From the NCBI GenBank assembly GCA_047967505.1, contig CM106538.1: a DNA stretch of 64,000 bases; one strand, 5' to 3'. The translations under genes and the position numbers were made by a program. Below the pieces are notes generated by a model. That model had not been told where the DNA came from. It saw nothing but the letters and a program-made list of their open reading frames with translations, and ran no database searches. The stretch is from Dipteris shenzhenensis (Eukaryota). Below, piece by piece: positions 714 through 59,249 of the stretch. Position 1 is the stretch's first letter; each line of letters begins with the position of its first letter.

Positions 714-1065
714 TGTTGAGATATCGAGCTCCACTCGTGATATGCCATGGTGACAGTTGTGCATTTATGTCACCGACTTGTTAGCTGCAGATGCGGTTGG
801 TACACCACCCATGAATAATAGCTGGATGACAGCTATCCTTATGTACTCTAGTTCGTGGCTCAGTTAGTATGCCACCTTAGTTAGCTGAGTTTGGTTTGAG
901 ACCCACATATAGGGTTCTTCTATTTCTTTGTACTAGAGTTCTTTTGGCTTTCACAACTAAGAAGAGGAAAACTGTTTTCAGCCTCCACCTTTGTGTGTAT
1001 TCCCCCAATGTGTATGTGAGAAAGCCGCAAGTGAGACTCCTTCCTTCTCTCCCACTATTTTCACA
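714..1065 (+). repeat. 5' LTR of Copia element 1 (352 bp)
   Basis: TG...CA termini; followed by PBS TGGTATCAGAGC (1066-1077); preceded by TGCAT; partner LTR lies inverted at 27817-28168. Confidence 0.95.
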
Positions 1066-4000
1066 TGGTATCAGAGCCTGGTTCGTGGTAAGGAGCTCAA
1101 GAAAGCAAACCAAGTTCACGGTGACCTAGTAAGAGGACCAGTGTTGCTTTCCTTTTTCAAGTTTGGGAGCAAATCTCTACAGGTAGCACAGCCAGAAAGT
1201 GCAAGAGTGCATTGTCTCAGATTGAGACGCCCTTCGCGGTGTGGCGAGAGGGCAGTATATGCTACGGGAAAGGGCGTCCACCTCCTTGAGAAAAAGGCCC
1301 TGTATTTGCTATGCGACCACTGCTCTGCATGTCGGTGAAAAGTTGCCGCAGAAATTGCATCGTATGCCTATGCGCAGAGATATTGGGAGTTATAGAATCA
1401 TCCTTATTGCCTGTTCATGCAAAATCATCACTAGGAAGTGACTGTGTGGTCAAATACCACTTTCGTCAGTTTTGCAGATTTGCCCTTGTGAGGCAGAAGC
1501 TTTGTTTTTTTGCAGTGATAGAATATTTTTCAGTGTTTTGTAATGGCGTCTGATTCTCTTTCACAGATTGTCACTGAAAAGCTTGACAAGAACAACTTCC
1601 AATCATGGAAGTTTAGAATGATGAATTTCCTTATGGGAAAAGGCTATTGGGAGTTCATTACATGAAATGAAGAAGAACCAGTTCTTCCTAATGTTCCCAA
1701 TCGACAGGAAATGCATGCATTTAAAGGATGGCATGAGAGAGCCAGAAAAGTTATGTATTGGCTGTCTATCAGTATTTCAGGTTCTATGATTGTGCATATT
1801 CAGGATGCAAGTACGCCAAAGGAGGCATGGGATACTTTGGCAAAAATGTACAGCACAAATACGCAAGCAAGGAAAATGTAGCTCAAGCAGGAGTTGCACA
1901 ATGTGCAGAGAGAAAATATGAGCATCAATGACTACCACATGAAGGTGAAGAAAATTGCGGATGCACTTGCTTCAATTGGGTCGCCAGTGGAAGATGATGA
2001 TTTAGTTTTTGTGACCTTGAATGGTCTAGGAAAGGATTATGCATAGTTCCGGACATCCATTGCTGTCCGTGAAAAATTTCCTAACTTTGAGGAGTTGTTT
2101 GCTCTTCTAATTTCTGAAGAGCGGAGAAATGGTGGTGCATCTTCTTCAGGAGGAACTTCAAAAGAAACTGTCTTCTACTCAAATGCTAGAAGACGTAGAG
2201 GCAGAGGTAGAGCAAGCCGATCTGGAGGCCATGGTAGAAATCAGGATATGCAGCAAACTCAAGAAAACCAATCCTATGGAGGAGGACGTGGTAACTCTAG
2301 AGGCAGGGGGAGCCAAAGAGGTCGTGGAGGATGGCAGAGAGGCCAAAATGCAAACAGCAATGTTGAATGCTACTACTATGGTAAAATGGGTCATATGGCT
2401 AAAGACTGCTATAAAAAGCAGAATGACATCATGAATGGAAAATTGCAGCAAGGGAATTATGCATCTTCTAGTAGACAGGGTGATGACAGAAATGAGCATC
2501 TATTTATGGTGCAGCACATGACCAATTCTGTGACAAGTGCAGAGGAAAGCAATGATGTGTGGTATGTTGACTCAGGTGCATCAAACCACATGACAAGTCA
2601 TGCGAATGGATGCAGGATGCAAGGAAAATGGAAAGACCAGGATTTGTGGAGTCTGGTGATGATACTGCACATGCTATTGTGCAGATTGGTAAAATTCCTT
2701 TGTCTATGCAGGATGGGAAAAAGAAATACCTATCTGATGTATTTCATGTCCTGAATATCACCAAGAACCTGGTTTCTATTGGTCAAATGGTTGTGCAGGG
2801 CTTGTAGGTCAGATTTAATCCTCATGGATGCTTTGTTGAGGATATGAAAAATAACGATCGCTTGATAGCAAAAGGAAAGAAGAAGGGCAAGATGTTTACA
2901 TTGGATGCGGACATGCCTGAATTGAGTGCAGCAATGTTTTCACATGGGACCAGTGTAGTTGCAAATATTGATATCTGGCATAAACGCATTGGTCATGTTA
3001 ATGTACAGCGACTTAAATCAATGCAGGCCCAAAATATTGTTGCAGGATTGCCTAAATTCAAGGTTGCAGAAATGCATAAGGTATGTGAAGCCTGTCAATT
3101 TGGAAAACATGCAAGGAAACCATTTCCTAGACATGTTCAAGAGAGTAAGAAGCCATTGGAATTAATCCACTCTGATGTGTGGACTACTAAAGCCGCATCT
3201 ATTGGAGGCTGTCATTATTTTGTCACTTTTATTGATGACTACAGCAGAAAAGTTTGGGTGTATTTTATGAAAAAGAAAAGTGAAGTGTTTGGGCATTTGA
3301 AAGCTTTTAAAGCTATGGTTGAAAAAGAAACAGGCCTGCAAATAAAATTCCTAGGGTCAGATGGAGGGGAAGAGTACCTCTCAAATGAGTTTGCAAGGTT
3401 CCTGCAGGAGCATGGCATAAAGCAGCAATATTCATGCAGTCATACCCCACAGCAAAATGGACTTACAGAAAGGAAAAACAGGCATATTGGAGAGGTATCT
3501 CGGGCCATGCTAAATGAAAAAGAGCTACCATATTATTATTGGGCTGAAGCAGTTGCTACAGTAGTTTACATAATGAACATGACTCCCACTGCAGCAATAC
3601 ATGGCATGACACCAGAGGAGATGTATACTGGTAGGAAACCAGATATTTCTCATTTGAAAATTTTTGGTTGCATTGCCTATGTTCATGTGCCAGATGAGTT
3701 GAGGTCCAAGTTGGATCCAAAAGCTGAGAAGTGCATCTTTATTGGTTATTCTCTGTAGCAGAAAGGGTATAGATGCTATAACCCTTCTACTCGTAAGTTT
3801 ACAGTGAGCAGAGATGTTGTTTTTTATGAGATGAGCAGCTGGTATAAACCAGTAAATGTGATTGATGATGTAGATGCACAAAATGGTAATGCTACACAGA
3901 ATTCACAACAGCAATCACAAAATATTAGTGGACCTGCAGTGTCCTCTAGCAGTGGTTCACATACTTCGCCATGGATAGGCAGATTGAGATCAGGAGAATC

Positions 4001-4530
4001 TCCTCAAATCAATGCAGATAGTGGTATGCAGGTATCACGAAAAGGAAAAGAGAAGGTAGATCAGCCCATGTTTGATGTGAATGCAGGTCACTCTTAGGTG
4101 GATGGTGAATCCAGTGGCTCAGAACAGAGCATTGATGATGAGTTGGTTATGAATTCCTTCTGTTGTTACACCTGGAGTAAGGAAGACTAAGGATGTTTTG
4201 AGAGCACCTGGAAGTGAGCCTATTTTGCACAGGTCTACCAGAGCTAGGTATCCTGTGGATAGGCTAAAATATGATGGATTTACAGCCATTCACTATGCCT
4301 ATATGGTCGAAGTGATACAGGAACCAGAACCCACTTCTTTTGAGCAAGCCATGGGAAAAGAAAAATGGGAGAAAGCCATGGACGAAGAAATGGATGCCTT
4401 GGAAGCAAATGCTACATGGGAATTGGTGCCTTTGCCTAAAGGCAAGAATGCAATTGGCTGTAAGTGGGTTTATAAGGTGAAGCACAATGCAGATGGTTCT
4501 GTGCCAGTTGTCATTTATTGTGACAACATG
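1066..4530 (+). mobile_element. Copia element 1 internal region: gag, protease, integrase; RT almost wholly deleted; breaks in RNase H
   Basis: EKLDKNNFQSWKF gag start, degenerate knuckle CYYYGKMGHMAKDC, WYVDSGASNHM protease, WHKRIGH/CEAC/LELIHSDV integrase; KVKHNADGS joined directly to [10 protein letters not shown]; several stops. Confidence 0.95.
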
Positions 4531-4666
4531 ACTGTGCAACGTCTTACATATATAGTGATGCAAATTTGGAATCTGTTGCATTTCCCAAACCATCTCAACG
4601 TGAATGTCAAGAATGTGAATGTCACATCGCAATGGATTCTAAGGGATGTGCGAGAACACCTTTTGG

Positions 4667-4913
4667 CTCAGGGGGGTCACTCATCATATGTAACCCTATC
4701 ACGTGAGTTCAAAAGAAGGATATTTTTTATTCCTAAAATTTACAGAAATAAATATACATAAGGAACTATTTAAAATAGTTTTGGAAAAAATTTACAGATT
4801 TGTATAGAAAAGGGGTACATTTTATTAATGAAAAAATTTACAGATAAGGGATTTTAAATATAGGCCTTCAACGCACGTGATATAGAGGGTTTATACATAG
4901 TGACCCCCCCGAG
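4667..4913 (+). mobile_element. MITE, copy 1
   Basis: TIR CTC(A)GGGGGGTCACT...AGTGACCCCCCCGAG; 8-bp TSD CCTTTTGG; empty site visible in paralog near 22667. Confidence 0.95.
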
Positions 4914-5341
4914 CCTTTTGGTCATGGACCTCGGACGGCATGTCAGAGTCCTTCTGCTTTATCTTAAATGGTGAGTAAGATCAACCACCGTGTGGAGAAG
5001 GTCATGGATAGTGCCAATTTCATTCCTTCTGCAACTTTGAAGATTGCTAACAATGTGTTTGACTAGTGCAACATTTAATTTTTCGTCTGTCAAATCCTAG
5101 TTATTGCTTCAAAAGATGATGGACAATTAAATTAAAAGTTATTTCTTTTAATGTTTTCTCCTTTCAGTTTATGGTAAATGTTTTACAAAAATTTGGGGAT
5201 TTTATGATTAATTAGGGTTTTGATATATATTAAAGGTTAGAGCCCTTTTTACATCACATTCTCACTTTCACATTTAGAGAGCCATAGAAACTCCCACCCT
5301 CAAAGTCACTCCCTCCATAAGCTCTGCTGCTGCTATTTGCC

Positions 5342-6857
5342 ATGGATTCCACTGAAACTACGTTCCATGACTTCATCTCACACACTGCATTTGCAAATCG
5401 TGAGGAAGAGCTATTTTTAGTGTTTGATAGGACTTTAGATGTCCAGGCACATATATGCGAGCCAAGGATGACTTCTCAGATCTCATCCTCTACATGCAAG
5501 ATAATTTCTCAAATTTTGCTTATACACTTGACCACTCTTCAAAGAGATGGGTTCGCATAGATTACATAAAGTCTATGTTCCTAGAGGAACAGATACTTTA
5601 TGTAAAGTGCTTGGCCTGCTTTTGTGATAACCTTATAGACGAAGGGTTTAGGACGGTCAAAGTTAAAGACATCCTAGATGCGGGGATCACGAGAAATACA
5701 GGCACAAAATTCCTTTCATGGGAGATGACATTCATCTTCCTTCTCCAAGAAGGAAACTTAGAGGAAGAAGCCTCATCCTCTAGCACCCCCTCTAGTAGAA
5801 TTGTTGATCTACTCTAGACTAGACTCGGACATGTACATGGAAGAGAGTCTTGATGATGCAATAGAGGAGATGGAAGCAGCTTAAGCATTGAGCCTACTTC
5901 AAGAGCCCCAAGTAGAGCAAGAATTTGCATCGGAGACCGCTGACCCACAATAAAAAATATGGTCCTTGTCCCCCCTCATCATCGATGGAGAAGAGTACAT
6001 ATTCCTCCATGACATAGAGGTTCTTTTTGGACTACAATAGGATGAGACACTCAGAGCCCTATCTGGGCTAGATGTTGACACAAGTGTCAAAGATCCCAAG
6101 GTTTTAGGTTCTGAAGAACAGACAATGGAAGAGTTTCTCTTGAAGATGCTAGTTTCAATGAGGGATGCAGACATGTCCATATATGCTGCACATCCCTCTG
6201 ATGTAGAAGCTTCCACCTCCAACACAGGGCAAGAGAAATGTCCACCTTCCAAATGGAACATCACATAGCACCTGGTTCCATCAACATTGCAAATGAAAAT
6301 GGGATAGAAGCCGACGACACTGTAGTGGTAAGTTCGAACAATATTTTTTATTTTGATGTTCTTTTGGTATACTTTGTTTTGTTGGTCTTCTAATGTTTGT
6401 TGAATTGTTGCAGGATGCATTTGAGCTTGATGAATTCTCATCTCGATGGGGTAATGTTCACAGTGCATTTGGGCGAGATCATTCTTTGGCCCATTACCTT
6501 GGCAAAGTCGCATAGCACATTGTGGTCTTCCATAACAAATTTTCTCCTCGAGGTCCTTCGAAGCTGCTAAAGTGCAAGCAAGGCATTGTCGCGTGCTATC
6601 GAATACTCCAACATTACTCAAAATACTAACAAAGTCATTTTGGTACACCACCTGGCTGCTATCAATGCCTTTGGATCAAACATTCATGGCAGGGCATTGA
6701 CGGCAGCAACTATCTTTGGCAATAGGAGAGGAGGATGTTAGTGCTATTGCATAGGTTTATATCTAGGAATCCACTAGGGGATTCAAAAACCCCTATTCTC
6801 AATGTACTCAAACTAGCCAAGAAGAAAGATAGCCTGCGAGGGCTTTTGTATATATAA
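5342..6857 (+). pseudogene. Two-exon gene of unknown function (X2) in the repeated X/Y unit
   Basis: Reading frame reconstructable across three copies (also 23095-24547 and 30640-32057 minus); GTAAGT...TTGCAG intron near 6328-6413; telo-box/TATA-like sequence upstream at ~5212-5233. Confidence 0.65.
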
Positions 6858-7067
6858 ACATATATTTCAATGGATACATGACTACATGTCTTTATTATTT
6901 GTTTTAAGTTATCGTTGCTCGTCATGAATTCATAATATTTATTCCATTGTATTTTGTTTAATTCATTGATGATATATTTTTTCCATCATTTTGATTGTGT
7001 TAATTTAATGCATTTCTTGCCAATTTAGTATCATTTTCACCAATTATGGGTATCAAAAGTTCATTTC

Positions 7068-7511
7068 TGTCAAATCCTGGAGGAATTTCATCGTGATGGA
7101 GAAGGGAAAAGTGTTCGGGATGTTGCCAAGAGCCTAGAAAGCCTAAAACCTGCCATGGCATGAATTTGAATGTCCAAATTCATCTCGGGGGGGTCACTCA
7201 TCATATGTAACCCTATCACGTGAGTTCAACAGAAGGATATTTTTTTTTCCTAAAATTTACAGAAATAAATATACATAAGGGACTATTTAAAATAGTTTTG
7301 GAAAAACTTTACAGATTTGTATACAAAAGGGGTACATTTTATTAATGAAAAAATTTACAGATAAGGGATTTTCAATAACGCACGTGATATAGACGGCTTA
7401 TACATAGTGACCCCCCCGAGAAATTCATGCCGTGGTGGGTTTTAGGATTTCTAGGGTCTTGGCGACGTCCCGGACATCTGCGCGACGGTGAAATTCCTTC
7501 AGGATTTGACA
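7068..7511. repeat. ~100-bp imperfect palindrome centred near 7170, split by a MITE
   Basis: Left arm TGTCAAATCCTGGAGGAATTTCA...CCTAAAACCTGCCATGGCATGAATTTG mirrors right arm CAAATTCATGCCGTGGTGGGTTTTAGG...TGAAATTCCTTCAGGATTTGACA once the MITE is removed. Confidence 0.9.
7184..7420 (+). mobile_element. MITE, copy 2
   Basis: Same TIRs; 8-bp TSD AAATTCAT (7176-7183, 7421-7428). Confidence 0.95.
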
Positions 7512-7705
7512 TAATTCAAAACTTACATTAAAATGAAAAGTAATTTTAGTCATAAACATGGAGAATACACAACAATGCGATAGTGTAGAGAATGTGGATA
7601 TATTTTATTAAAAAAGTTTGGCCCTTGGGCCTCATATGCAAGAATCTGATAGTGCCTTCAAGGGCAGGGGGTGGTCTGAGTCCTAAGGGTGTGCTGCAAG
7701 AGAAT

Positions 7706-8678
7706 CTAGGGCTTCAAGCTTGGGTCACCCTATAGCCGCTTCGCCAGAGCCATGTACTTGTCCATGATCACGACACGCTTTGCGTGGATGGCACACAAGT
7801 TGGCATCCTCGAACAAAGCGGTGGTCACTTGCTCCATAGCCTCGTGGAGCGCTCCCATAGCTCCTGTGCTGAATCACACATCGTCCTTGTATCCCTGTGC
7901 TATCTCCCATACCACATGTTGGAAGGGAGCACGGGGGATCAGGTTGTCAGTGGTCTTCTACATCTGTCTGATCTCCCTTAGGGCCCGTTCTCCTGGCTTT
8001 GCTTTGTATGGCTTTCTGACTCTTGGTGGAGGCTTTATAGGTACTCGAACATGGTTTGATGGCCTCCTGTCTGGCTTGAATTTCTTATGCTTCTCTTCTC
8101 TACATTGATCCTCCTCTAGATCCCCCTCTCGCGGACGTCTTGAGCTTTGTCCTTCTTTGGGATGGGGCTTCCTCGGCGTGTGCTTTACCCTCTTCACTGA
8201 GAGAGGGAAGATTGTGCTCTTCCTAATAGTCTATTGGCCCTCATGAAGCCTCTCTATATCAGGGAGGTTATTGAATACATTTTGCTCATGCAGGGGAGTC
8301 CTCTCATGGGGAGGGGGAGGCTGAGGGGAAGGGAGCTTCTCAAATATATTTTGCTTGATTAGGGGAGTGCTCTCATGGGGAGGGGAAGGCTGAGGGTAAG
8401 GCTCATGCTCTTGGGGCTTGGGAGTGGGCTCACAAGACTGGGGAGTTGCGGCTCACAAGACTTGCGAGAAGGAGAAGGCTCATGAGACTGGGGAGTGGGA
8501 TCATGAGACTTGGGGGAGGGCTCATGAGAGATTGGGGAGGGCTCATGAGAGTAGGGGGAGGGCTCATGAGAGTTGAGGGAGGCTCACGAGAGTCATGGGA
8601 GAGCTCACAAGAGTTGGCAGAGGGCTCGCGAGAGTCAAGGGAGGCACCATCGGATAGGCTCGTGTACATAGATGCCAT
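7706..8678 (-). pseudogene. Divergent histone H3-like gene with long S/P/E/H-rich N-terminal extension
   Basis: Manual translation: [97 protein letters not shown] aligns without gaps to the H3 fold; upstream 21-nt repeats at 8430-8600. Confidence 0.9.
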
Positions 8679-8766
8679 GGAGGTGGTGGAGCTAGAGGAG
8701 GAAGGGTGGAGGCAGTGTCTTGTGGGTCTAGAAGCGTTCTTCACTCTTGCAATTGAATAATGAGAG

Positions 8767-8837
8767 TTAGGGTTTTTTAAAACGTTTTATATAGGCCCAT
8801 CATATTTTGACACCCCTTTTAATTATGTTTAGGGTTT
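8767..8837 (-). promoter_or_regulatory. Putative promoter of the H3-like gene: two telo-boxes, site II motif, TATA
   Basis: Minus strand reads AAACCCTAAA (8837-8828), TGGGCC (8799-8794), TATATAAA (8793-8786), AAACCCTAA (8775-8767) upstream of the ATG at 8678. Confidence 0.55.
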
Positions 8838-8974
8838 CATTGTGTCCCCCTCCCCCGCCCTAACCCCTCCAATCCCCCCCACCCTCGTTGCCCTTCTCCC
8901 CTTTTTCCCTCCCCCCTACTTGCCCCCCCCACACCCATTGCCCTCCCCCATACCCCCCATCCCCCCCTTTCACA

Positions 8975-11176
8975 AAATGCTTTCTAGTATTCCCAACCCA
9001 AACTGCTTTGAGACAATGTATGTTTGTCTTTGTCGAGATTGTGGTTCGATAGGAATCTCCTTGCCTTCCCTCCACCCATGGACATTTTTGTAGGAAGTTT
9101 CTGTGTTGCCCTAGACATTTTCTTATCCTCCTTAACTTTGACATGTCCTCCATGGAATCCCATCTCTGACAGAAACTTCTCAGCTTCTACAATGCACCGT
9201 GTGGATAATTCTTGCAAAATTAAATTCCAAGCATAAACAAGATGCAAATACAACAACTTATCAAGTACACACAGTTTTGCATGTAAAGTATATATGTGTA
9301 CTCTCTCAAGTGGGATGGGCAAGATGGGATCCACTTTGGATCCTTCTCATCATGATTGGGAGCTTATGTTTGGCTGCAAGATAGAATGCCATTCTCCCAT
9401 TGTAAGCCAGCCTTTTGCTTACGTTGCAAACACATGCAATAAAGGCATGTGTTCATTGCATTTGCCCCTGTATCACAACCATGCAAGCACTTGAGGGTTT
9501 TCAAATCACCAACAAGATGCCATTCAACTCGAAATGTTCCATGGCCATCAACTGTCAATGTTTGCCCTTCCTCTTGTCTTCAGATCCATCATTGATGGGA
9601 TTCCTGTTCTATCTAGAACCCACCTCAATGTCTTGTGGCACTCTTTCAGAGTCTCAAATGTTGCAAGCCACCATATATCTTTCTCTCATTGCACTGAGAA
9701 ATATTTCTCTACTTCTTCATTCCCTTGAACAAAGGCTAAGGATTTATTCATAATGTAGATGCTCACTCTCTCTAACTTGTGTTCTTTCACCAATTGAGCT
9801 TCATCCATTTTGATGACAAATATGAGATTTCCATTGCAATCTATACAACAAAAGAGAGAAATCGTTAGGATAAACATGATATAGGAAATGAACTAAGTTA
9901 AGTGCAATGCTATAATGGATTTTCTCTTACCATCTTCTCTCATGCCATAGAATTTGACCATTTCTTGTTGGAGTTTCTCAACATCTAAGTATACATTGTT
10001 AAAAGCATTCATCTCAAAGGTTTGCAAGCCAGATTTCTTAATACTCTTCCAAGTCATTGTGCCCCTTACGCAATGGTACCCTCCAAGCATTACTCTTGCA
10101 TGTTGGTTTATCTCTTGCCATGCACGTCTCATAGACCAAGGTGTGGGTAGGGGCATTGTAGGCTTCTTATACTTTCCCAAAATAGTAGACTTGAAAATTT
10201 TGAAAACAGATGTGTAAGCTTCACGACTTACACCGGTAGTATCACAAGCTGCAAGCATCTCCTTTGCATCCAAAATATCCTTGAAGTCCTTCATCACCTC
10301 TTCAGCAACTTGCACACATAGGCGCTTGTGTCTTGGGTCCCGTAGTATCCCAATGACATCACTTGACTTCAATAAACTAGCTAGAGCATATGAACAGTCA
10401 ATATCATCCCCGTTCGCTCTTCCCAGCACATAAAACTTAGTCACAAATAGTGTAGCCCAGAAGTGTGTAATTTCATTGGAACATTTGATAACCAACCTTG
10501 TATCCCGGACTCTCCTCTTTCTAGCACCACCAGTGGGTGCCAATGCATCCATGTTATGTAAGTACCTTCTTTTCCTATCCTTCAATCCCAAAGGTGTTTC
10601 TTTCATCTTTTGCACTCGTTCTTATGCCTTCTCTCGTTCCTTCTCTATGGCTTGCCGAACTTGATTGTATATAGATCTTTCCAAGCCTTTTTTGGACTCA
10701 ACTAGCTTACAAAATGACTCTTCTAATTTATGTTGCTCCAAGTCCAATGCTTTGGATTTATCATGAAGATCTTGATTCTTCCTTTAAAGATCCTGCATAG
10801 AGTTATGCATTGTAAAAATGGTGCTATTTCCTAAATGTGCTAGCATCTCTTCTTAGGATCTGTGCATCTTGCTTGCTTGCATAGCCATTGATTGAGCATT
10901 GGTTAATCGATTGCAATAACCAAGCAACCCTGCATGTCCATTTCCAACAAACCAAACTAGCTCATGCATTGTATGGAAAGGAGAGATCTTTTGGTTGGCA
11001 GGATTTAAAGGATACAAGAATCCTTCTACCCAAAGGTCTAGATGCTTCTTTCCTTGCAAACAGAGATTGTGGATTTTGGAAGCTCCCCTCAATCCCAGAC
11101 TACATGTGCTTGCATATTCAACCTCTAACTCTAAGTGAACTTGGTACTTATTGGAGACATCCTCGAATGGTGCCAT
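8975..11176 (-). pseudogene. RAG1/Transib/Chapaev-like DDE transposase, intron-containing, C-terminus deleted
   Basis: IFVIKMDE, WHLVGDLKTLKCLHG..ANAMNTCLYC, PILPIPLERVHIYTLHAKL, KMSMGGGKARRFL; phase-matched intron 9930-9841; N-terminal coiled-coil-like region; frameshifts and stops. Confidence 0.7.
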
Positions 11177-11209
11177 GAGTAAAGGAGTCTAGAGAAGGAG
11201 AAGGTGTGG

Positions 11210-11710
11210 AGAAGCAGGCTTGAAGGATCAGCATGCAAAAAGAGGGAGGGCGAGGAGGAGGAGGGAGGACCAGTAGTGGAAGAGGAGGGAAGGGGGGCAG
11301 ACCAGCAGGTGTGGAGGTTGAGGAGGAGGCATGGAGGAGGAGGGAGGAGTAGGAGGGAGGGGGAGGAGGAGCAGGCGTGGAGGAGGAGGGAGGGGGAGGG
11401 GAGGAGGAGCAGGCATGGAGAAGGGAGGGAGGCAGGAGTGGGGGAGGGAGGGAGGGGGAGGGTAGGAGGAGCAGGCATGGAGGAGGGAGGGAGGGAGGGG
11501 GAGGAGGAGGAAGGGCGAGGAGGGAGTGAGGAGGGGGAGCGGGAGAAGGGGGGAGGGGGAGGAGGAGGGAGGGGGAAGGGGGAGTGAGGAGGGGGAGGGA
11601 GGGAGGGGGAGGAGGTGGGAGGGGGAGGAGGGAGTGAGGAGGGGGAGTGAGGGAGGGGGAGTGAGGAGGGGGAGGGAGGGAGGGAGGAGAGAGAAGGAGG
11701 GAGGGAATGC
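11210..11710. repeat. Polypurine/polypyrimidine low-complexity tract upstream of the transposase
   Basis: GGA/GGGA-rich repeats; inverted homolog at ~29030-29520. Confidence 0.9.
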
Positions 11711-13031
11711 AAAATTCATTTTTAAAATTTTGAATTTGTTGGTTCCCACCTAGGAGTAAGAGTTGTGTAAGAGGTGTAACAATTGTTGGTTCCCACTTAG
11801 GAGTAAGAGTTGTGTAAGAGGTGTAAGTGGTGGGGTCACTTTTGGGCTTAACCCATCTAGGTGAGGGGGGGTTAGGACTTTTTGGAACCTACCTTGGCCC
11901 TTTCATTAGGACTAATCCATTTCTTAATCCATTCCTTATGAGGCCCTTTCAAGGCCCCGATTATCCCCTAATGTCTCTTCACAAAGTACTTCTAGTTGAG
12001 GATGTTAAAGGACCAGATTGAAAATTTCATGTCTAAGTCCTATACCCATGCTAGCCATCTTGAATCTTAACTTATGTACTTCATTAAGTTCATGTAAACT
12101 ACGATCACTCTTTGTGCTTGTCTCATGCCCATTGAGTCTCTTTTCTTTACAGCCTCATGATTCCTTATAAAAATCTCGCAATGCATATTTCCATGTATTA
12201 GATTGATTCACCAATTGGGTTGCTCAATATAATATGCAAATGTGCAATTACATGCAAGCTGAAAATAAATAGTGCTTTAAATGACAAACAATATCAATCA
12301 AGAATCCATGCATCATATTGCATTGGTAGATGTGCTATCTATAATGCCAAATCTAAAAAGAAAAGAATATATAAGTGATATCATCAAGTCTCGTGACTAT
12401 GCAATGTCTTACATATATAGTGATGCTAATTTGGAATCTGTTGCATTTCCCAAACCATCTCAAAAAATTATCACAAACAAGAGCATGAAACTGTGGGGAG
12501 CATATTGTATGATCAATCACAAGTAAATATATCGTTGTGAAGTATTAGAGAAAACTTTTTATCTATGGCAATTGACTAGCTAGTGTAGTCACTACTTAGG
12601 TTGATACCTATCCACCAATGTCTATGATTGTCTCCCTAAGTTCTCCATTTCTCATTCATTATAATTTCTATCCACCAATGTCCATGGTTTTCTCCCTAAG
12701 TTCTCCATTTCTTGTCTATTTGAATGGTCAATTCACTATTTATAGTGGAGTTATTAGGGATGGTAGAGAGTTTGCACTGATCAATTAAACAATATAGTTA
12801 TGGGGTATGGAATAGAGTTTACAATTCCCACTTAACAAAGGGTAGTCAAGGAGTAATTGCACCTATTTCAAGGAGGGAAACAATACACAACTACAGCTCT
12901 TTCCAACAATAGACAAATAAATTTGCCAATGCTACACAATCCCTTGTTTATTTCCTACTCTAAGCTCTCCTTGCTTGAATTGTGCTTCATGCACACAGTT
13001 GTAGGATTTTGTGGCATACACAATTACTCAC

Positions 13032-16000
13032 TGTTGAGAGTTGTGGTGCCATGAGCACATAATTAGAGGCTAAGGTATGGTATAGGAACGAATTAAAGTA
13101 GCCACCCTAGGATGTGGACTACATGATGTGGAGATGTGGATTGAGGATATCCACAAGGAGAGATGTGGATGAGAGGATCCCACATGGTTTGACTATTCTA
13201 AAGGCTCTCTCTATATAAGAAGCCTATCATGTATTGTTGAGTACACATATTGCAATAGATTGAGAGTTTGTTACCCTATGTCTCTCTTGTGGTTCTTTGA
13301 TCCCCCTTGATCCCTCACTTTGTCATGGTATCAGAGCTCCCCTGTCTTTCGTTGAGACATGGTGATCCTTGCGTGAGAGTGTGAGAGATCTAGAGCAAGA
13401 GAAATTTCTGTCCACTATTCTTTTTGTGTGAGAGAGAGATTCCTTGTGAGTTCTCCTTTTGAGAAAAATAGAGAGAGAGTGAGCGAGAGCTTAGATATTC
13501 ATTCCTGTGAGAGAGAGATAGAGGTAGTCCTTTTCTTCGATCCACAAGAGACAGACTCCAAGTTTCAACGACTCTCTAGCTACAACGGACTACAGCGACT
13601 TCAGCTAAAGCTAATCTAGCCAACAAAATCCACCGATGGCCAGCGCTACCTACATCCCACAACCACAATGAAGGCCACGGCTCTAGCAGCTTCAACAACC
13701 ATCATGCTTCGCGGCATTCTGCATGAACGGTGACAGCCTCCAACAAAAGCACCACAACCTCATAGCTCCTTGACTCTCTCCGTAGCCAGTCGAGATGCCT
13801 AAATGGCCTAATGCCCGGATCTGCAGCAGCCAGCAAAGAGTAGGCCATGGAGATTGTCGAAAGCCTTCCACTCCAGGATCTCCCGGATCGGTAGTGACAT
13901 CACTTAAGAGCTTAGCTGCAGAAAACACGCAACACTCGGTGAGTCTGATGCGAAACAAAGCTCCGCGGCCAGCACCATGCTAGTGGAGAGCATGGTCGAA
14001 ATGGGCGATGACTTCTTCTCTGCCTTTTTGAATTTGGTAGCCAGCTGTGGATTCAGAGTTCCTTCAACTCTTGCAACCTGCAATAGATGCCCGCTCTTGC
14101 TCCCTACTCAACAAATGACACCGAGTCCATAAGCCTCAACGTCCTCTCCATCACCACACCCACGCAAAGTGTCCTCTCCATCGCTGTAGAGAAGCAAAGC
14201 TCTCTCTTTTTCCTTCCCTAAGGTTAGACCTTAGGCCATGTGGCAGTCCCTTGATAGGACACATGGTAGATAAGCCACTCAACCCCATGACCTTAGGTTC
14301 GCCTATGGTTGAGTTCATCTGCTTGGGTTAATGTAACCATGGTACAGTTTTTGTAACCCTAGTTTAAATAAGCTGGGTTAAAGGGTCACCACAGTGACAC
14401 CTCAGCACAGTAACCGCTTGCTAAGAACTGGTTTGTAAGCAGCATGTGACTCCCTATGCCACATCACCAACTGCCCCTCTTCTTCACAAAAACTTCGACA
14501 AGCTATAACTTGCAATCCAAGAAGAATTTGCACACGCTCCAAAAAGAAAAAGTGATTGTCTTTTCGAGCTCTACGCACCTGTCAACTAAGATTTTTTGTA
14601 TGCAATTAGAGACTGCTAGATTTGAAAGTATCTTCAACTGGTAAGACCTTTGCAATGGCAATACACACCCAACTACTGAGAAGTTCACTGGGGAAGGATT
14701 CCACATGTGGTCTACACAAATGAGGTATCTCCTGATGCATCAAAAGCTTTGGAAGACTGTAAAAGAAGAAATACCCACTGCACAAAATGATGCCTGGAAG
14801 GAAAAAGATGAAGCCGCACTATCACTCATTGGTTTGCACTTGGGTCCAAACATAATTCATCATATAGACTCCAAGGATCATGCCAAAGATGCATGGGATG
14901 AGTTGAACATAGTGTTTGGTGCAAAAGCCAAAAACCAAGAAATCCATCTTAAGATTGAATTCTATGGTATGCACATGGGCTTCAATGAATCCATGGCACA
15001 ATTTGTCTCGGGGGGGTCACTCATCATATGTAACCCTATCACGTGAGTTCAACAAAAGGATATTTTTTATTTCTCAAATTTACAGAAATAAATATACATA
15101 AGGGACTATTTAAAATAGTTTTGGAAAAAATTTACAGATTTGTATAGAAAAGGAGTACATTTTATTAATGAAAATTTTACACAGATAAGGGATTTTAGAA
15201 ATATACCTTGAACGCACGTGGCATAGAGGGTTTATACATAGTGACCCCCCCGAGCAATTTGTCAACAAGATCAAAAGCATTATGACCCAACTAGAGGGCA
15301 TAAATGTAAAAGTAGGAGAGAAAGATGCACTTGCAATTCTCCTTAAAAGCATGCCTGCAGAGTACAGTGCACTGACAACCACTTTGAAGAATTTGCCAAA
15401 TCCAAAGTTTGAGGAATGTGTATCCTCTCTTCTTGAAAAAGAAAGAGAGTTTAAGGTATCGACATCGACATCGACATCTACACACAACAGCTATAATGAA
15501 GAACAAGCACTATTCAGTAAAACATCAACGAAGTGCTAGCATTGCGGAAGGATGGGTCACTATCAAAGTGACTATAGACTAAAGAACAAACCAAAGTGTC
15601 ACCATTGCAAGAAGCTGGGACACAAGGAAGAAGATTGTAGATTGAAGAACCAGCAGGTCAACTACATAGCATCGTCATCAAGCCATGATCCAAATGGTGA
15701 CATCAATGGAATGTATTGAGAAACAAAAACCTTGCCAACCTTGGCTATATTTTGTAATCAAACCTGACCACCTGAGAGTAGCTATGAAAGCACCCAGGGG
15801 AGGTATTGACATGTAAAAGCCACACTTGACCACCTTAAGTAGCAATGCAAGCATTAAGGGGAGGTGATGGAATGTAACTCACATCTGTCCACCTTGCAGT
15901 AGCCAAAGGATCATGGCACCAAGGGGAGTTGTGGTGACATGAGCACATAATTAGAGGCTAAGGTATGGTATAGGAAAGAATTAAAGTAGCCACCCTAGGA

Positions 16001-16361: not shown

Positions 16362-19300
16362 TGTTAAAGCACATGGACCAAGCTCTCCTGTGGACCCTAA
16401 TCTACTCTAATGACAACACTAATCTAAGGTGGATGAATCCTAAGAGTGATCATGATCTATAACTCAAGTCAATTAGGTTCTAAGATAGATTACCTTGGAC
16501 TCATAAAGAGAATCTTGAGATACTGCAAAGTGCTTAATTGATATTACTTCAAATGAACCTCCCTTTTATATGTGAGGGTACTTACATCCATATGCTTGCT
16601 CACATGTGGGATATCTCCTGCATGCCATGTGGCAGCTTGCCCTTTACTCATACCTTTGCTCTACATGTGCTCATGGCACCACAACTCTCAACACCTCCCC
16701 TTGGTGCCATGATCCTCTAGCTACTACAAGGTGGTCAGATGTGAGTTACAATCCATCAACTCCCCTTAGTGCATACATTGCTACTTAAGGTGGTAAAGTG
16801 TGGTTTTTACATGTCAATACCTCCCCTGGGTGCTTTCATAGCTACTCTCAGGTGGTCATGCTTGATTTACAAAATATAGGCAAGGTTGGCAAGGTTTTTG
16901 TTTCTCAATACATACCATTGATGTCACCTTTTGGCTCATGGCTTGATGAGGATGCTGTGTAGTTGACTTGCTGGTTCTTCAATCTGCAATCTTCTTCCTT
17001 GTGTCCTAGCTTCTTGCAATGGTGACACTTTGGTTTGTTCTTCAATCTGCAGTCACTTTGATAGTGACCCATCCTTCCACAATGGTAGCACTTCGTTGAT
17101 GTTTTACTGAATAGTGCTTGTTCTTCATTATAGCTGTTGCATGTTGATGTCGATGTCAAAGAGGATGCACATTCTTCAAACTTTGGATCTGGCAAATTCT
17201 TCAAAGTGGTTGTCAATGCACTATACTCTGTAGGCATGCTTTTAAGGAGAATTGCAAGTGCATCTTTCTCTCCTACTTTTGCATTTATGCCCTCTAGTTG
17301 GGTCATAATGCTTTTGATTTTGTTGACAAATTGTGCCATGGATTCATTGATGCCCATGTGCATACCATAGAATTCAATCTTAAGATGGATTTCTTGGTTT
17401 TTGGCTTTTGCACCAAACACTGTGTTCAACTCATCCCATGCATCCTTGGCATGATCCTTGGAGTCTATATGATGAATTATGTTTGGACCCAAGTGAAAAC
17501 CAATGAGTGATAGTGCTGCTTCATCTTTTTCCTTCCAAGCATCATTTTGTGCAGTGGGTATGTCTTCTTTTACAGTCTTCCAAAGCTTTTGGTGCATCAG
17601 GAGATACCTTATTTGTGTAGACCATGTGTGAAATCCTTCCCCAGTGAACTTCTCAACAGTTGGAGTGCGTATTGCCATTGCAAAGTCTTACTGTTGAAGA
17701 TACTTTCAAATATGGTAGTGTCTAATTGCATACAGAAAATATAAGTTGACAAGTGCGTAGATCTTAAAAAGACGATCACTTTTCCTTTTTGGAGCGCGTG
17801 CAAATTCTTCCTGGATTGGAAGTTACGGCTTGTCGAAGTTTTTACGAAGAAGGAAGAGGCATGATGATGTGGCACAGGGATTCACATGCAGAATTCAAAC
17901 TGTGCTTACAAAGGGACTGTGCTTGTGTGGCACTATGCCATGTGGCAATCTTCTAACCAAACTGAGTTAACTCAAGGGTAGATAAACTGAACTATGTTCC
18001 AAGAATTGAACTTAACCATATGACCTTAGCCACCCCTAACCATGGCTTAAGATGGGTTAACATAGCTAGTCCTATCTGCCATGTGTCACTCAATGGTGAC
18101 CTTAGGAAGAGAACTTTGAGAAGCTTTGATCTAAAGTGTTGTGAGCTTTATGCAGAGCCGCGCCGTTCGGTTGCTATGGGCTGAGTCGTTTAGGCTTCAG
18201 AAGCAGAGATGGGTGAGGTGTTGCTGGCCGGTAGCTACAGCTCATGCTTGAAGGAGGTGTTGCTTGTGGAAGACTATCATTGCAGGAGCTACAAAGGAGC
18301 TTGGTGAGGCAGCTATGTTACGTGAATCACTGTTGCAAAGCTGCTAGCCACTCGCATTGTTGTCAGTATCCGTGGCTGTGTAGGAGAGCGCAGTAGAGAA
18401 GCTTGTGTCTAGGAGAGCAGGAGCCTTAGATGGAGCTTTGTTTAGAGTGATCTGGTTGCTATAGGGTCGCTACTCTGTGGAGTAGCTGGTCATTGAAGAA
18501 GGAGCATTGGCTCGTCAGTGAGGCCTTTGGAGAAGCATCTCATTTGGAGAGGCAAGGTGGGCTGTGTAGGTTGTTGGTTGCCAGACGGTTGCCTCTGCCA
18601 ATGGTCTCGTTGCATGTAGTGTGAGGGAGTCGAGTTGAAGCTAGGATGATTGCGCTATTGGAGTTGACATAATTTTAGGAGCCACCATACTTTAGTCGAT
18701 ATGCTTTGAGCTCGTTGATGGAAGTCTTTTGAGAAGCCAAGAGCTATTGCAGAGCTAACTAAAGTCATTGTGCTATGTGCTTGCTGGGAGTGTCAATGTT
18801 CCTATCAGATCTCTTTCAACAGAGAGATTATTTCTCCCTATGAATATGAACCTTTGAAGCTCTCTCTCACAATTAAATTTCTCTCAATCTCATGGAGGAA
18901 ATGACATCTCTATTCCTCACGAAGCAACTCTCACAAACTAAATCTCTCTCTCAACAAAATGAATGGATGGAAAATCCTATCACATGAACGAAAATTTCTC
19001 TATCAAAATATGGATGAAGATCTCTCACCGGAAGTGGACTCTAATGGAGAACACTCAAGAGAACTCTCAATCTCACAATCTCTCTCATGCTGTCAAGGAT
19101 CGCAATGCCTCAGTGGAAGGCAACAAGGGTGCTCTAATACCATGTTAAAGCGCATGGACCAAGCTCTCCTATGGACCCTAATCTACTCTAATGACAACAC
19201 TAATCTAAGGTGGATGAATCCTAAGAGTGATCATGATCTATAACTCAAGTCAATTAGGTTCCAAGATAGATTAGCTTGGACTCATAAAGAGAATCTTGAG

Positions 19301-19474
19301 ATAGTGCAAAGTGCTTGATTGATATTACTTCAAATGAACCTCCCTTTTATAGGTGAGGGTACTTACATCCATATGCTTGCTCACATGTGGGATATCTCCT
19401 CCAAGCCATGTGGCAGCTTGCCCTTTACTCATACCTTTGCTCTACATGTGCTCATGGCACCACAACTCTCAACA
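16362..19474 (-). mobile_element. Non-autonomous gag-only LTR retrotransposon (TR-GAG-like), element B2
   Basis: LTRs 16362-16693 and 19143-19474; exact TSD AGTTG; PBS and PPT in place. Confidence 0.93.
16905..17678 (-). CDS. gag: Copia-type Gag (257 aa, open frame)
   Basis: EKFTGEGFHTW..., AWDEL, two zinc knuckles CYHCGRMGHYQSDC and CHHCKKLGHKEEDC. Confidence 0.9.
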   Translation of the reverse strand: MAIRTPTVEKFTGEGFHTWSTQIRYLLMHQKLWKTVKEDIPTAQNDAWKEKDEAALSLIGFHLGPNIIHHIDSKDHAKDAWDELNTVFGAKAKNQEIHLKIEFYGMHMGINESMAQFVNKIKSIMTQLEGINAKVGEKDALAILLKSMPTEYSALTTTLKNLPDPKFEECASSLTSTSTCNSYNEEQALFSKTSTKCYHCGRMGHYQSDCRLKNKPKCHHCKKLGHKEEDCRLKNQQVNYTASSSSHEPKGDINGMY

Positions 19475-19751
19475 AGTTGCAAGGCAGAGTCCTTTTTGTG
19501 GGTGTTGACTTCAAGCCATGATTTCACCATACTCATGAGGCCTTACATATTGATTGTATACCTTTCTCAAAAGTTCCACATGTTGCGGGGGTATGAGATC
19601 AATAGAGATGTAGGAGATCATTAGATGGAAATGTAGCCGAATAGTCTTCTCACATTGCTTTGTTAGCTTAGTAAATTAAGAGAATGGGGGGTCTGACATA
19701 CCAGGCTAGCTACCTGTTGAGTGTAGTCTAAAACAATCTAAGATTGTGATG

Positions 19752-19793
<42 letters not shown>

Positions 19794-22027
19794 ATTCCAA
19801 TGATGGACAAGGAATGAGAAAGAGTGCACCTCTATGTCTATCTATGTGTGTGTGTGTGCGTGCACTCGTGTGCATGTGCACGTGTGCATGCATGCGTGCA
19901 TGTGTGTGTGTGTGCAAGTGCCTGTGTGTGTGTGCAAGTGTGTGTGTGTGTGTGTGTGTATGTATGTGTTATTAGCCGGAAAACAAATCAGGACCAGAGG
20001 CTAGAGGCTAAGCATGGCGACGCTCGAGGGCCATAGAGGAAAGGAGAACGTGAGGGCGAAACCTTATCATGGGAGGGGAAAAGGAATTAGAAGGGGAGGG
20101 AATGAAGAGGGAGATTATGACACAAGGGGAAAGGGAGAGGGGGAAGAGGAGCATGTACATGATGGGAGGAGGAATGTAAAGATGGAGACATCAAGGGAAG
20201 AGGACCATGCTTTATTTTGAAAGGAAGGGAAGGGAGAAATCAAAGTACTAGCTATTTTGAAAGGAAGGGAAGGGAGAAATCAAAGTACTAGCTAGGTGGC
20301 TTTACAAGGGGACGAGCATTATCTGAGCGAAATCTTCCGAGCGTCCGAGTGAAGGAAAAAAAAAGCTTCCAACTATGCATAAATATGGCAAAAATCGATC
20401 AAAAGAAAACATAGTTTCACTTAGAAATATGCAAAGTATTATAGCAATTCCTATTTTATACAAAAATCTTTAGGTGAATCTTTAGGAGTGGTGAGAGCAT
20501 AATGGGATGCCTTTTGAAGAAACCACATATAGAGTAGACTTCTCTATGAAAATTCCCTTATGATCCTTCTTACAACTTTTACTTAATAGGGGGTGACATT
20601 GAAAACCCTCTCTCAACCTATCTTCATGAAAGGGTTTCTTCAAAGAAAACTCATTGAAGCAAGCCATCCAGGTAGTTTTGCCAGCGAAACCCCTTTGAAG
20701 CAGGTCTCCCAAGGTAGTTTCGCTGGTGAAACTACCTTGGACAGCACTTTTAAAAGTGACATAACTTTCATATCCAATGTCCTAATATAGTCATTCAACC
20801 ACTCAAATTGATTGGAACACCCCCTTTGAGCACATCTATGGAGTTATATTTTGGAAAATCTTGCATATATAGTATTAAATATTACATGTATTTTATGAGA
20901 GTGATATATAAGTCCAAGTTAATACTTATTTATAGTAATTTAAACTTCTTTAGAAACATGTCCATAAATATCTTGTTATTTATGCTATAAAAACACTAAA
21001 AAGATATTGCCATATGATCTAAATGTGTTAATAAGTAATTATCTATGCATAGTATTATTACATTGAGAGTGATTATGAGGGATGTTTCTTAAAGGAATCA
21101 ACACTTTTTTAAGGTAATAACAGGGGTACAAAGGGATGTCTCTAAATAAGAAATTTATGTTGTGTAAAAATGAATGAGTGACTAGTCTGTATATTTTTAT
21201 GATAAAGAGATCTAGTTCTAGTGAAAGTAAAAGTGTAAAAACCATATTTCCTAAAGAAATACATTTTTTTTAATCTCTTGAAAAACACGCTCGGATAAAC
21301 CTGCTCATAGGTTTTTGCTCGTAAAATTGACGCATTCGCTTTACAAGAATGAGCATGCCTCATCAAGGAATAGCCCCCTCCTTTTATAGCCAAGAGAGAG
21401 GGTCTCTCCCAATAAATGCATGCTCCCACATGCATGGTGTGTGTGGAAGAGTCTCCCATGTGGGCTAGGCAATTATGCACTCTCAATTGTGTGCGATAAC
21501 GCTTGGCCACATTTCTCCACAGATATCAACTCCCATATCCCAAGTCTATGATACTCCCTTGGTCTCTTCCCAATTTTATAATACGTTCAAATGTCTAGGA
21601 GGACAAGTGGAGGGTTGGCACAAGGAATCTTGCCACCTCATCCTACTTTCCCCATTATTTAACTTGCATCCTTGGACTATCTATACCTCCCCCACATGGT
21701 CCTATCCTATATGGAGGGAATAACCCAATATAATATCCATCTCCACCTATTTTATATTACTTCTCCCATGGACTTTGAGCCATATCTCACTAAATGCAGC
21801 CTAGGTGGAAGGGTGACACATGGTCATGCCCTGCCACCTCAACCCTGGGCCCTATGCATGTGAAGATAGTGGGAGAGAAGGAAGGAGTCTCACTTGCGGC
21901 TTTCTCACATACACAATGGGGGAATACACACAAAGGTGGAGGCTAAAAACAGTTTTCCTCTTCTTAGTTGTGACAGCCAAAAGAACTCTAGTACAAAGAA
22001 ATAGAAGAACCCTATATGTGGGTCTCA
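18592..22027 (+). repeat. First copy of a ~3.4-kb direct duplication
   Basis: Near-identical to 24545-27987; includes B2 5' end, (GA)n/(TG)n microsatellites and a partial Copia-1 LTR (21860-22027). Confidence 0.95.
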
Positions 22028-24547: not shown

Positions 24548-25701
24548 CTGCCAATGGTCTCGTTGCATGTAGTGTGAGGATGTCGGGTTGAAGCTAGGAT
24601 GACTGCGCTATTGGAGTTGACATAATTTTAGGAGCCACCATACTTTAGTCGATATGCTTTGAGCTCGTTGATGGAAGTCTTTTGAGAAGCCAAGAGCTAT
24701 TGCAGAGCTGACTAAAGTTATTGTGCTATGTGCTTGCTGGGAGTGTCAATGTTCCTATCAGATCTCTTTCAATAGAGAGATTATTTCTCCCTATGAATAT
24801 GAACCTTTGAAGCTCTCTCTCACAATTAAATTTCTCTCAATCTCATGGAGGAAATGACACCTCTATTCCTCACGAATCAACTCTCACAAACTAAATCTCT
24901 CTCTCAACAAAATGAATGGATGGAAAATCCTATCACATGAACGAAAATTTCTCTATCAAAATATGGATGAAGATCTCTCACCGGAAGTGGACTCTAATGG
25001 AGAACACTCAAGAGAACTCTCAATCTCACAATCTCTCTCATGCTCTCAAGGATCGCAATGCCTCAGTGGAAGGCAAGGGTGCTCTAATACCATGTTAAAG
25101 CGCATGGACCAAGCTCTCCTATGGACCCTAATCTACTCTAATGACAACACTAATCTAAGGTGGATGAATCCTAAGAGTGATCATGATTTATAACTCAAGT
25201 CAATTAGGTTCCAAGATAGATTAGCTCGGACTCATAAAGAGAATCTTGAGATAGTGCAAAGTGCTTGATTGATATTACTTCAAATGAACCTCCCTTTTAT
25301 AGGTGAGGGTACTTACATCCATATGCTTGCTCACATGTGGGATATCTCCTCCATGCCATGTGGTAACTTGCCCTTTACTCATACCTTTGCTCTACATGTG
25401 CTCATGGCACCACAACTCTCAACAAGTTGCAAGTCAGAGTCCTTTTTGTGGGTGTTGACTTCAAGCCATGCTTTCACCATACTCATGAGGCCTTACATAT
25501 TGATTGTATACCTTTCTCAAAAGTTCCACATGTTGCGGGGGTATGAGATCAATAGAGATGTAGGAGATCATTAGATGGAAATGTAGCCGAATAGTCTTCT
25601 CACATTGCTTTCTTAGCTTAGTAAATTAAGAGAATGGGGGGTCTGACATACCAGCCTAGCTACCTGTTGAGTGTAGTCTAAAACAATCTAAGATTGTGAT
25701 G

Positions 25702-25743
<42 letters not shown>

Positions 25744-25858
25744 ATTCCAATGATGGACAAGGAATGAGAAAGAGTGCACCTCTATGTCTATCTATGTGTG
25801 TGTGTGTGCGTGCACACGTGTGCATGCTTGCGTGCATGTGTGTGTGTGTGCGAGTGCC

Positions 25859-25931
<73 letters not shown>

Positions 25932-27987: not shown

Positions 27988-28386
27988 CCAAACTCAGCTA
28001 ACTAAGGTGGCATACTAACTGAGCCACGAACTAGAGTACATAAGGATAGTTGTCATATAGCTATTATTCATGGGCGGTGTACCAACCGCATCTATAGCCA
28101 ACAAGTCGGTGACATAAATGCACAACGGTCACCCTAGCATATCACGAGTGGAGCTTGATATCTCAACACTCCCCCTCAAGCTCAATCCCAATTCCTGCAC
28201 ACCAAGCAGGTCTCTGAACTTGCGTAGCTTCTCTACGCCCAATGCGTTCGTGAATATGTCAGCTACCTGATCCTCTGTGTTGACATAAACTAGATCAATA
28301 AGACCTAGTAAAACCTCCTACACATAGTGATAATGCACCTCAATGTGCTTTGTTCTAGCATGATAGACTGGGTTATTTGCCAAGTG
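27817..28386 (-). mobile_element. Inverted 3' end of Copia element 1 (RNase H end, PPT, 3' LTR)
   Basis: Minus strand HLANNPVYHARTKHIEVHYH...QVADIFTNAL, PPT AGGGGGAG, LTR 28168-27817, then TGCAT matching the 5' TSD. Confidence 0.95.
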
Positions 28387-59113: not shown

Positions 59114-59249
59114 AAAACAAATTGAAACATAATGTTTTGCTAATCAAATCTAACCAAATAGTGTCCAAATATAAATCAGAATGTAGGTACAAATGTTTTA
59201 GTTGAGCATTTGTGTCTACAACTCTAATTAACAAGATCACTCACATTCC

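Follow-up and report, generated by a model that had tools for sequence, protein, structure and literature searches.

The stretch of DNA analysed here (64,000 nt of Dipteris shenzhenensis contig CM106538.1, hereafter the window, in whose positions all coordinates are given) very probably carries at 4604-12397 a single dead copy of a multi-gene DNA transposon of ~7.8 kb with a predicted RAG1-fold transposase, and a palindrome with arms of ~100 nt that lies inside this element, between two convergent genes. In this copy an accessory gene, here called X, is encoded on the + strand and is followed by a histone H3 gene and, upstream of the latter, the transposase gene, both of which are on the - strand and point towards X. 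The palindrome is situated between X and H3 and belongs to this element lineage. An earlier note on the same DNA had read the region as a head-to-tail array in which the terminal inverted repeats (TIRs) of adjacent units were fused end to end at the palindrome, and had offered an internal hairpin between convergent genes as an alternative. It is this alternative that the evidence favours.

Gene order and extent of the element

Distant relatives were located by scanning metagenome contigs with an alignment of 27 transposase relatives (alignment A2), which gave 35 loci from many samples, the relatives being only 30-50% identical in protein. Twelve of these loci extend 600 bp or more past the downstream end of the transposase gene and are informative for gene order. 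X is convergent with the transposase gene, tail to tail, in seven of the twelve (L011, L018, L029, L030, L031, L032 and L033), the distance between the two gene ends ranging from -37 to 187 bp. Three others (L005, L008 and L013) have H3 immediately after the transposase gene on the same strand, one (L010) has X on the same strand as the transposase gene, and another (L021) has neither X nor H3; a short same-strand match to X was also seen in L026, which has only 307 bp downstream and is outside the twelve. The order in the window, with transposase and H3 facing X, is a combination of two common patterns among the relatives. Because the layout is kept in relatives as divergent as these, the tail-to-tail junction would be the conserved middle of the element and not the meeting point of two elements.

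Self-comparison of the window, which is repeat-rich eukaryotic DNA of about 35-48% G+C, identified three copies of the repeat, designated A, B and C (Table 1). On the left, A and B are similar from ~4604 and their upstream flanks are unrelated, and on the right A and C are similar up to ...GTGAC at 12397 and then diverge. In sensitive blastn comparisons of the 582-bp upstream flank of B and the flanks of C at both ends with the flanks of A, the 70-bp unit that brackets A and the opposite element end, the best E values were at least 1. As the flanks of the three copies are unrelated beyond the common ends, 4604 and 12397 are taken as the ends of the repeat; the copies are old, B and C each show one end only, and these boundaries may differ from the true termini.

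Copy C resembles A in two blocks (A 5426-6943 and the reverse complement of 32057-30536, 88%; A 10264-12397 and the reverse complement of 30498-28386, 87-93%), and joins the X part to Y, the transposase side of the unit, at the equivalents of A ~6999 and 10264. It lacks the 3.26 kb of A in between (7000-10263), and with them the palindrome, H3 and part of the transposase open reading frame (ORF). The ORF at 9896-10621 in A spans this deletion point and matches uninterrupted proteins of relatives, and since it is continuous there, C represents an internal-deletion derivative whose joint between X and Y is no homologue of A's palindrome. The two X/Y boundaries that the earlier note had treated as equivalent (7170/7171 in A and 30498/30497 in C) are therefore not the same point. 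X and Y do both recur, as had been stated, and X is present in a third, direct copy (22610-24556), but the order of parts drawn from this recurrence is not borne out.

Further copies were seen in sequencing data of the organism, of which six runs contained 5-7% of the sampled words and four low-coverage runs were compared as Logan contigs at a likeness of at least 85%. Many short contigs of about 90% likeness cover most of the unit, which indicates a repetitive family in this organism. The outer boundary of the left palindrome arm at 7060 is crossed by contigs X3#20 (6752-7114), X2#10 and X3#21 (both 6919-7168) and X5#28 (6882-7168), which come from the X 3' flank, and that of the right arm at 7519 by X5#29 (7477-7709), which comes from the H3 3' flank. 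Each arm thus has, in these other copies, the neighbour that it has in A.

Copy A is bracketed by a 70-bp direct repeat (4529-4598 and 12394-12463, 95.7%, 3 mismatches), confirming with slightly wider limits the short repeat reported before at 4531-4598 and 12397-12462. This repeat is a duplicated flank around A, not the spacer of an array or of a longer unit. Its left copy follows the break of a truncated copia element; Pfam recognized gag, integrase and the start of reverse transcriptase in the copia fragments of the window. Other copia copies diverge at 4496/4497 (loose contig ends), and a continuation of the broken copia element was searched for after 12463 and not found. The match of the 5-nt filler CGTGA at the left junction to 12392-12396 may be due to chance.

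The transposase, histone H3 and X genes

The transposase copy in the window is dead. It changes frame where the relative L005 stays in a single frame, and the C-terminal exon, which carries a conserved glutamate motif in full-length relatives, is missing from it; the C-terminal exons of four relatives had no match in the window at E <= 1. A HMMER search of 1.84 billion representatives returned 64 transposase relatives at E <= 0.001, and a word-indexed search with the C-terminal part of P0007, a relative of 599 amino acids, returned 62 more. The only named relatives among these proteins are annotated as 'hypothetical protein' in the fern Adiantum and the charophyte alga Klebsormidium. Searching for longer proteins with the 242-amino-acid transposase ORF found none, and a search of a protein atlas with the transposase ORF and with X produced nothing usable. 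Within A2, the residues D285, K287, K290, G294 and C305 are invariant, D172 and C308 are nearly so, and KLDE is likewise nearly invariant. The conserved acidic positions are D172 and D285, and a CxxC follows the second of them.

Structure prediction assigns the transposase to the RAG1/Transib fold, with a core made up of dimerization/DNA-binding, pre-RNase H, RNase H and zinc-binding modules, the comparison having been done on P0007, which is ~35-50% identical to the window pseudogene, and not on the window copy itself. An AlphaFold (AF2) model of P0007 built on A2 (pLDDT, the predicted confidence score, 71.3) was compared with PDB by Foldseek, and all 44 matches at E <= 0.001 were RAG1, BbRAGL of amphioxus or HzTransib, with an E value of 1.3e-07 to RAG1. 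VIA-align against 48,161 representative chains aligned 428 residues with RAG1 412-938 (Z 13.7, root-mean-square deviation 7.1), and its top six matches were RAG1, BbRAGL (Z 12.6) and HzTransib (Z 10.6), the next being the P element transposase with Z 6.4. At the sequence level, Pfam found no RAG1, DUF1280 (PF06918), CACTA or other transposase family in the 27 members of A2 at E <= 10, and no RAG1, DUF1280 or CACTA match in 48 further relatives at E <= 0.01. The A2 profile likewise matched no RAG1 or Transib chain among PDB sequences at E <= 10. The enzyme is thus described as a predicted RAG1-fold transposase of an unnamed family and not as a proven Transib. A transposase in the unit had been proposed before, and the RAG flavour of that proposal was apt in view of the fold of P0007.

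The H3 gene proposed earlier for the unit was also recovered: the - strand of 7700-8230, with stop codons written as the letter X, matches Pfam PF00125 (Histone) with an E value of 1.4e-25, and the intact H3 of L005 matches the window gene in tblastn with 2e-16. Intact H3 genes in relatives match PF00125 with E values of 7e-34 (L005), 6e-26 (L013) and 3e-18 (L008). Among solved structures, the best matches to the L005 protein are H3/CENP-A chimeras and fission-yeast Cnp1 (E 5e-28), with canonical H3 practically tied (E 1e-25). Divergent N-terminal tails and a lengthened loop 1 characterize these element H3 variants (L005 1675-2226, L013 2375-2704, L008 3633-4436). In L005, a hairpin with 18-nt arms (94%) at 2206-2258 sits exactly on the intact H3 gene's stop codon.

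X has ORFs in A, B and C, and B keeps two of 268 and 155 codons. The X protein of L010 matches the copies in tblastn with E values of 4e-07 on A and 8e-26 on B, and X proteins of relatives align with that of the window (alignment A3). Neither the window gene nor its relatives have a match in Pfam. The model of the L033 protein is poor (pLDDT 48.9) and consists of helices and small sheets in which no kelch propeller is visible; a Foldseek search with the X model found no fold at E <= 0.001, with weak winged-helix-like matches at E ~0.5 only. Because a codon-position test among A, B and C detected no periodicity, the divergence of X looks neutral. Tandem palindromic units (37-nt and 22-nt arms) were seen upstream of the X start at 5009-5257 of L011 and 5051-5291 of L032, and may be candidate subterminal binding sites.

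The palindrome and its possible origins

The arms of the palindrome measure ~100 nt and are about 86% complementary, with one 9-nt indel. They are 253 nt apart today, and the loop was 8 nt before a miniature inverted-repeat transposable element (MITE 2) was inserted. A palindrome of ~100 bp with almost no loop, as originally described, is thus real, but as a description of the present sequence this was inexact. With the MITE removed in silico, the RNA fold energy is -146.7 kcal/mol vs -57.2 +/- 4.8 for 30 mononucleotide shuffles, a folding strength far beyond chance. Since the arms are 14% diverged and interrupted by a MITE with its own target duplication, the palindrome is an old, genuine feature and no assembly artefact. 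It starts ~220 nt past the X stop codon (~6838), and on the other side lies about 190-210 nt past the H3 stop codons (7706-7732).

No further copy of either arm, nor any single arm, occurs elsewhere in the 64-kb window, and the arms are absent from the 35 related metagenome loci. Heptamer-like CAC/GTG ends were not found at the palindrome centre, nor was a CAC-type heptamer at either boundary of A, of which the right end reads ...GTGAC. A target duplication is lacking at the palindrome edges (7060/7519). The heptanucleotide GAATGTC has five occurrences on the + strand of the window, among them 4602 and 4617 at the left end of A and 7168 at the palindrome centre. A further idea, that the arms are a duplicated last exon, came from a ~31-residue peptide, closed by a stop codon, that can be read from both arms. 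It was dropped because a common reading frame is an automatic result of palindrome symmetry and no relative of the peptide is present among 127 proteins, 14 locus ORFs and the 35 loci.

If the palindrome is internal, it would have arisen only once, when ~100 nt at the junction of the convergent genes were duplicated in inverted orientation in an ancestor of the lineage (the arms are ~14% and the copies ~11% diverged). A hAT-like MITE was inserted later, 8 nt from its centre. Its position would mark the end of both convergent transcripts, where the two 3' untranslated regions should finish. A functional palindrome could then act as a two-way stop, or as a 3'-end hairpin for transcripts from both sides. 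Read-through would yield a hairpin RNA of ~100 bp open to small-RNA silencing, for which the Mu killer locus of maize, a hairpin silencing locus, offers an analogy. Such a putative working role as transcript stop or source of hairpin RNA is possible, but we rather expect the palindrome to be a neutral relic, the scar of a fold-back repair event.

Several results weigh against a single element with an internal palindrome. A search for a TIR between the ends of copy A gave a score of 18, compared with 13.5 +/- 2.3 (maximum 24) in shuffles, and five relatives had no convincing terminal repeats, only a 16-nt exact match in L018. Instead of a 5-bp target duplication, copy A has a duplication of 66-70 bp, and this duplication, taken with the 5-nt filler that repeats the element's own end, would be compatible with a donor in concatemer or circular form, so that A may have some head-to-tail history. 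Within the window the palindrome centre is present in A alone, as B ends before it and C has it deleted, and the arm-to-arm join was observed in copy A only. Among the sequencing contigs, three extend past 7168 by 71, 21 and 159 letters that no longer match, and X5#29 has 298 unmatched letters on the palindrome side of 7477. Five relatives examined for a large palindrome at the tail-to-tail junction had none, and this absence, with the 18-nt hairpin of L005 as the exception, argues against an essential conserved role.

The fusion proposed in the earlier note would join the TIRs of two adjacent units, through tandem insertion or a reintegrated circle, and make the element TIR-H3-transposase-70-bp spacer-X-TIR. 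Arms of ~100 nt with a tiny original loop are what such a joint could look like, and the predicted RAG1 fold would place the enzyme in a group whose excised ends can join head to head (PMC10629977). The 70-bp repeat around A, the 5 nt at its left junction that equal the right end of the element, and the word GAATGTC, which is present in the palindrome centre and has two further occurrences at A's left end, also speak for it. With Y-spacer-X as the internal order, however, the 70-bp spacer would be required in B and C, and the model fails because neither copy has this spacer, or the other element half, beyond the start of X or the end of Y (E at least 1). The joint in C was produced by an internal deletion that interrupts the transposase ORF, single arms are lacking in the window, and the joint of A lies inside the unit set by the ends of A, B and C. 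There is no CAC/GTG heptamer at the centre, and the arms, ~200 nt past two stop codons, occupy places where one expects 3' untranslated regions. Moreover, a separate tandem insertion would be needed for each of the seven informative relatives (of 12) in which the genes stand tail to tail on one contig. Fused ends, and the head-to-tail array built on them, are therefore very improbable. Alternatively, the palindrome could be a small independent foldback or MITE-like element of ~207 bp, consisting nearly entirely of inverted repeat, that nested between the genes before the lineage amplified. Its size and shape fit, MITEs land at that very spot in the window, and the more distant relatives are without it; yet it has no target duplication at 7060/7519 and no other copies of its arms in the window or the 35 related loci, and both arms keep the same element neighbours in other copies of the organism. 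For this last reason an insertion would have to be a foldback fixed in the lineage and not a separate family here, and we regard this origin as unlikely.

A different explanation concerns the placement of copy A and is compatible with an internal palindrome, namely that A came from a head-to-tail concatemer or circle, or was placed by break repair, giving the flank duplication and the filler. The 95.7% identity of the 70-bp flank duplication, the 4-nt overlap (TGAC) of flank repeat and element end, the identity of 4599-4603 with 12392-12396 and the missing 5-bp target duplication would all be accounted for. A match of five nucleotides could, however, be fortuitous, copy B has no such filler, and a junction of a circle or concatemer was not seen in the contigs, which leave 12072-12600 without cover; this history is improbable as well. 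Hardly credible is the view that the repeat is an immobile cluster of host genes of which segmental duplication and inversion have made several copies. Large duplications do fill the window (714-1067 / 27815-28168; 14442-15932 / 16691-17889; 18592-22027 / 24545-27985), and terminal repeats and target duplications were not found, but the three copies are ~11% apart with three different flanks, many contigs ~90% alike occur in four low-coverage runs, all genes are decayed, the enzyme has a predicted transposase fold, and the same gene kit is present on many unrelated metagenome contigs. One dead copy of a multi-gene transposon, with the palindrome between its convergent X and H3 genes, thus remains the reading that we prefer.

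Table 1. Positions of the repeat copies, genes, palindrome and neighbouring features in the window (rc, reverse complement).
Feature	Position	Strand	Remarks
Copy A, ~7.8-kb multi-gene repeat	4604-12397		Ends common with B (left) and C (right); flanks unrelated
Copy B, X part only	22610-24556	+	Equals A 4604-6804 (89%); without MITE 1; truncated by 3.4-kb repeat
Copy C, inverted	28386-32057	-	A 5426-6999 joined to A 10264-12397; without palindrome and H3
Left 70-bp direct repeat	4529-4598		After break of truncated copia element, homology ending near 4497
Junction filler CGTGA, 5 nt	4599-4603		Between flank repeat and element start; equals the element's own 12392-12396
MITE insertion 1	4667-4913		Target duplication CCTTTTGG (4659-4666 / 4914-4921); empty site in copy B
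Gene X, accessory gene, decayed	5467-6838	+	Motif IDGxxYxxLxDIxxLFxLRED
Palindrome, left arm	7060-7167
Palindrome, centre/loop, 8 nt	7168-7175		GAATGTCC
Palindrome, right arm	7176-7519		7176-7183 plus 7429-7519; split by MITE 2 with one of its two target-duplication copies
MITE insertion 2, 237 bp	7184-7420		Target duplication AAATTCAT (7176-7183 / 7421-7428); 8 nt into right arm
Histone H3-like pseudogene	7706-8230	-	Histone fold 7733-8077; two stops in fold, two in C-terminal tail
Low-complexity sequence, 21-bp tandem repeats	8231-8968	-	Repeat family at 8400-8637; in place of C-terminal exon
Transposase pseudogene, predicted RAG1 fold	8969-11167	-	In-frame stop, frame changes, without last exon
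Purine/pyrimidine-rich low-complexity tract	11230-11890		Upstream of transposase gene; mirrored in C at 29034-29500
Right 70-bp direct repeat	12394-12463		Overlaps the element end by its first 4 nt (TGAC)
Other MITE family members	15007-15254; rc 63468-63717; 45360-45498		45360-45498 partial

The MITE family in Table 1 (~240 bp, represented in the window by four complete members and a partial one) has perfect 16-nt terminal repeats (CTCRGGGGGGTCACT...) and 8-bp target duplications at two insertions, and we take it to be hAT-like from the length of this duplication alone. Its summed word depth is enormous in the sequencing runs of the organism. Elsewhere in the window, a copia gag region forms a large inverted duplication (14442-15932 / 16691-17889, 92-95%) with a ~760-bp spacer and a MITE in one arm. 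Direct repeats of 3.4 kb (18592-22027 / 24545-27985, 96.5%) flank copy B and 582 bp of unique DNA, and could be long terminal repeats or belong to a tandem duplication of 5.95 kb; an inverted copy of their far end (27815-28168) lies at 714-1067 (96%). A long run of ORFs on the - strand at 58448-63494 contains a SET-domain-like (58448-59020) and a NIF/CTD-phosphatase-like sequence (59253-60302), as well as two ORFs (534 and 230 codons) that match nothing in Pfam, and may be another multi-gene unit.

Comparison with known recombinase systems

RAG-like (RAGL) transposons are described as having the structure TSD-TIR-RAG1L-RAG2L-TIR-TSD (TSD, target-site duplication), with convergent genes and 5-bp duplications, and Transib elements as having no partner gene (PMC10629977). 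The family in the window resembles Transib, RAGL and RAG1 in the predicted fold of P0007, which extends over about 430 residues and scores far above other folds, and in its conserved acidic residues and CxxC. It also resembles RAGL in that two genes stand tail to tail, RAG1L and RAG2L there (PMC10629977) and the transposase and X here. In contrast to Transib and RAGL, it has no sequence-level match to RAG1/Transib profiles, CAC-type terminal repeats and a 5-bp target duplication were not found here, some of its lineages carry an H3 gene, and the host is plant-like. The partner X differs from that of RAGL by the lack of a visible kelch propeller, although the X model is too poor to exclude one. 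A difference from Chapaev/CMC elements is that no DUF1280 (PF06918) or CACTA match was found in Pfam, a comparison of profiles only. With the signal joints of V(D)J recombination and with transposon circles, the palindrome has in common only the idea of head-to-head ends that give a palindrome; unlike in signal joints, its arms are the 3' flanks of two genes, without heptamer-like ends and in the middle of the unit. The palindrome thus represents neither a signal-joint-like fusion nor part of a head-to-tail array, and is in itself of modest interest.

A literature search found no description of this plant transposase family. One survey lists 39 'plant' Transib-like proteins (PMC9435367); the examined part of its supplement holds one plant entry, on a Capsicum scaffold, and makes no mention of Adiantum, Klebsormidium or a histone. 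What appears to be new is a family with a predicted RAG1 fold and without a Pfam model, a conserved convergent partner X and, in one branch, an H3 variant of its own, which would extend RAG1-fold transposons into the plant lineage and enlarge the set of gene kits that they carry. Perhaps streptophyte plants hold an unnamed RAG1-fold lineage with a RAGL-like layout and X in the place of RAG2, in which some members use a centromeric-type H3, possibly for marking or hiding chromatin, the palindrome serves as a cis element (a two-way stop or an internal site bound by the transposase) and the junctions of A derive from a circle or concatemer. Taken together, this picture is rather unlikely. The vertebrate descendant of the RAG1-fold recombinase family reads H3 tails, and the element raises the question of why this recombinase family repeatedly acquires H3 genes.

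Multiplication of a histone gene by a mobile element has a precedent in fungi, where a DNA transposon amplified a histone H3 gene (PMC6710886). The two systems are alike in that a DNA transposon carries and multiplies an H3 copy, and differ in that the host there is a fungus and the H3 a captured housekeeping gene, whereas here an H3 variant recurs in three of the twelve informative relatives.

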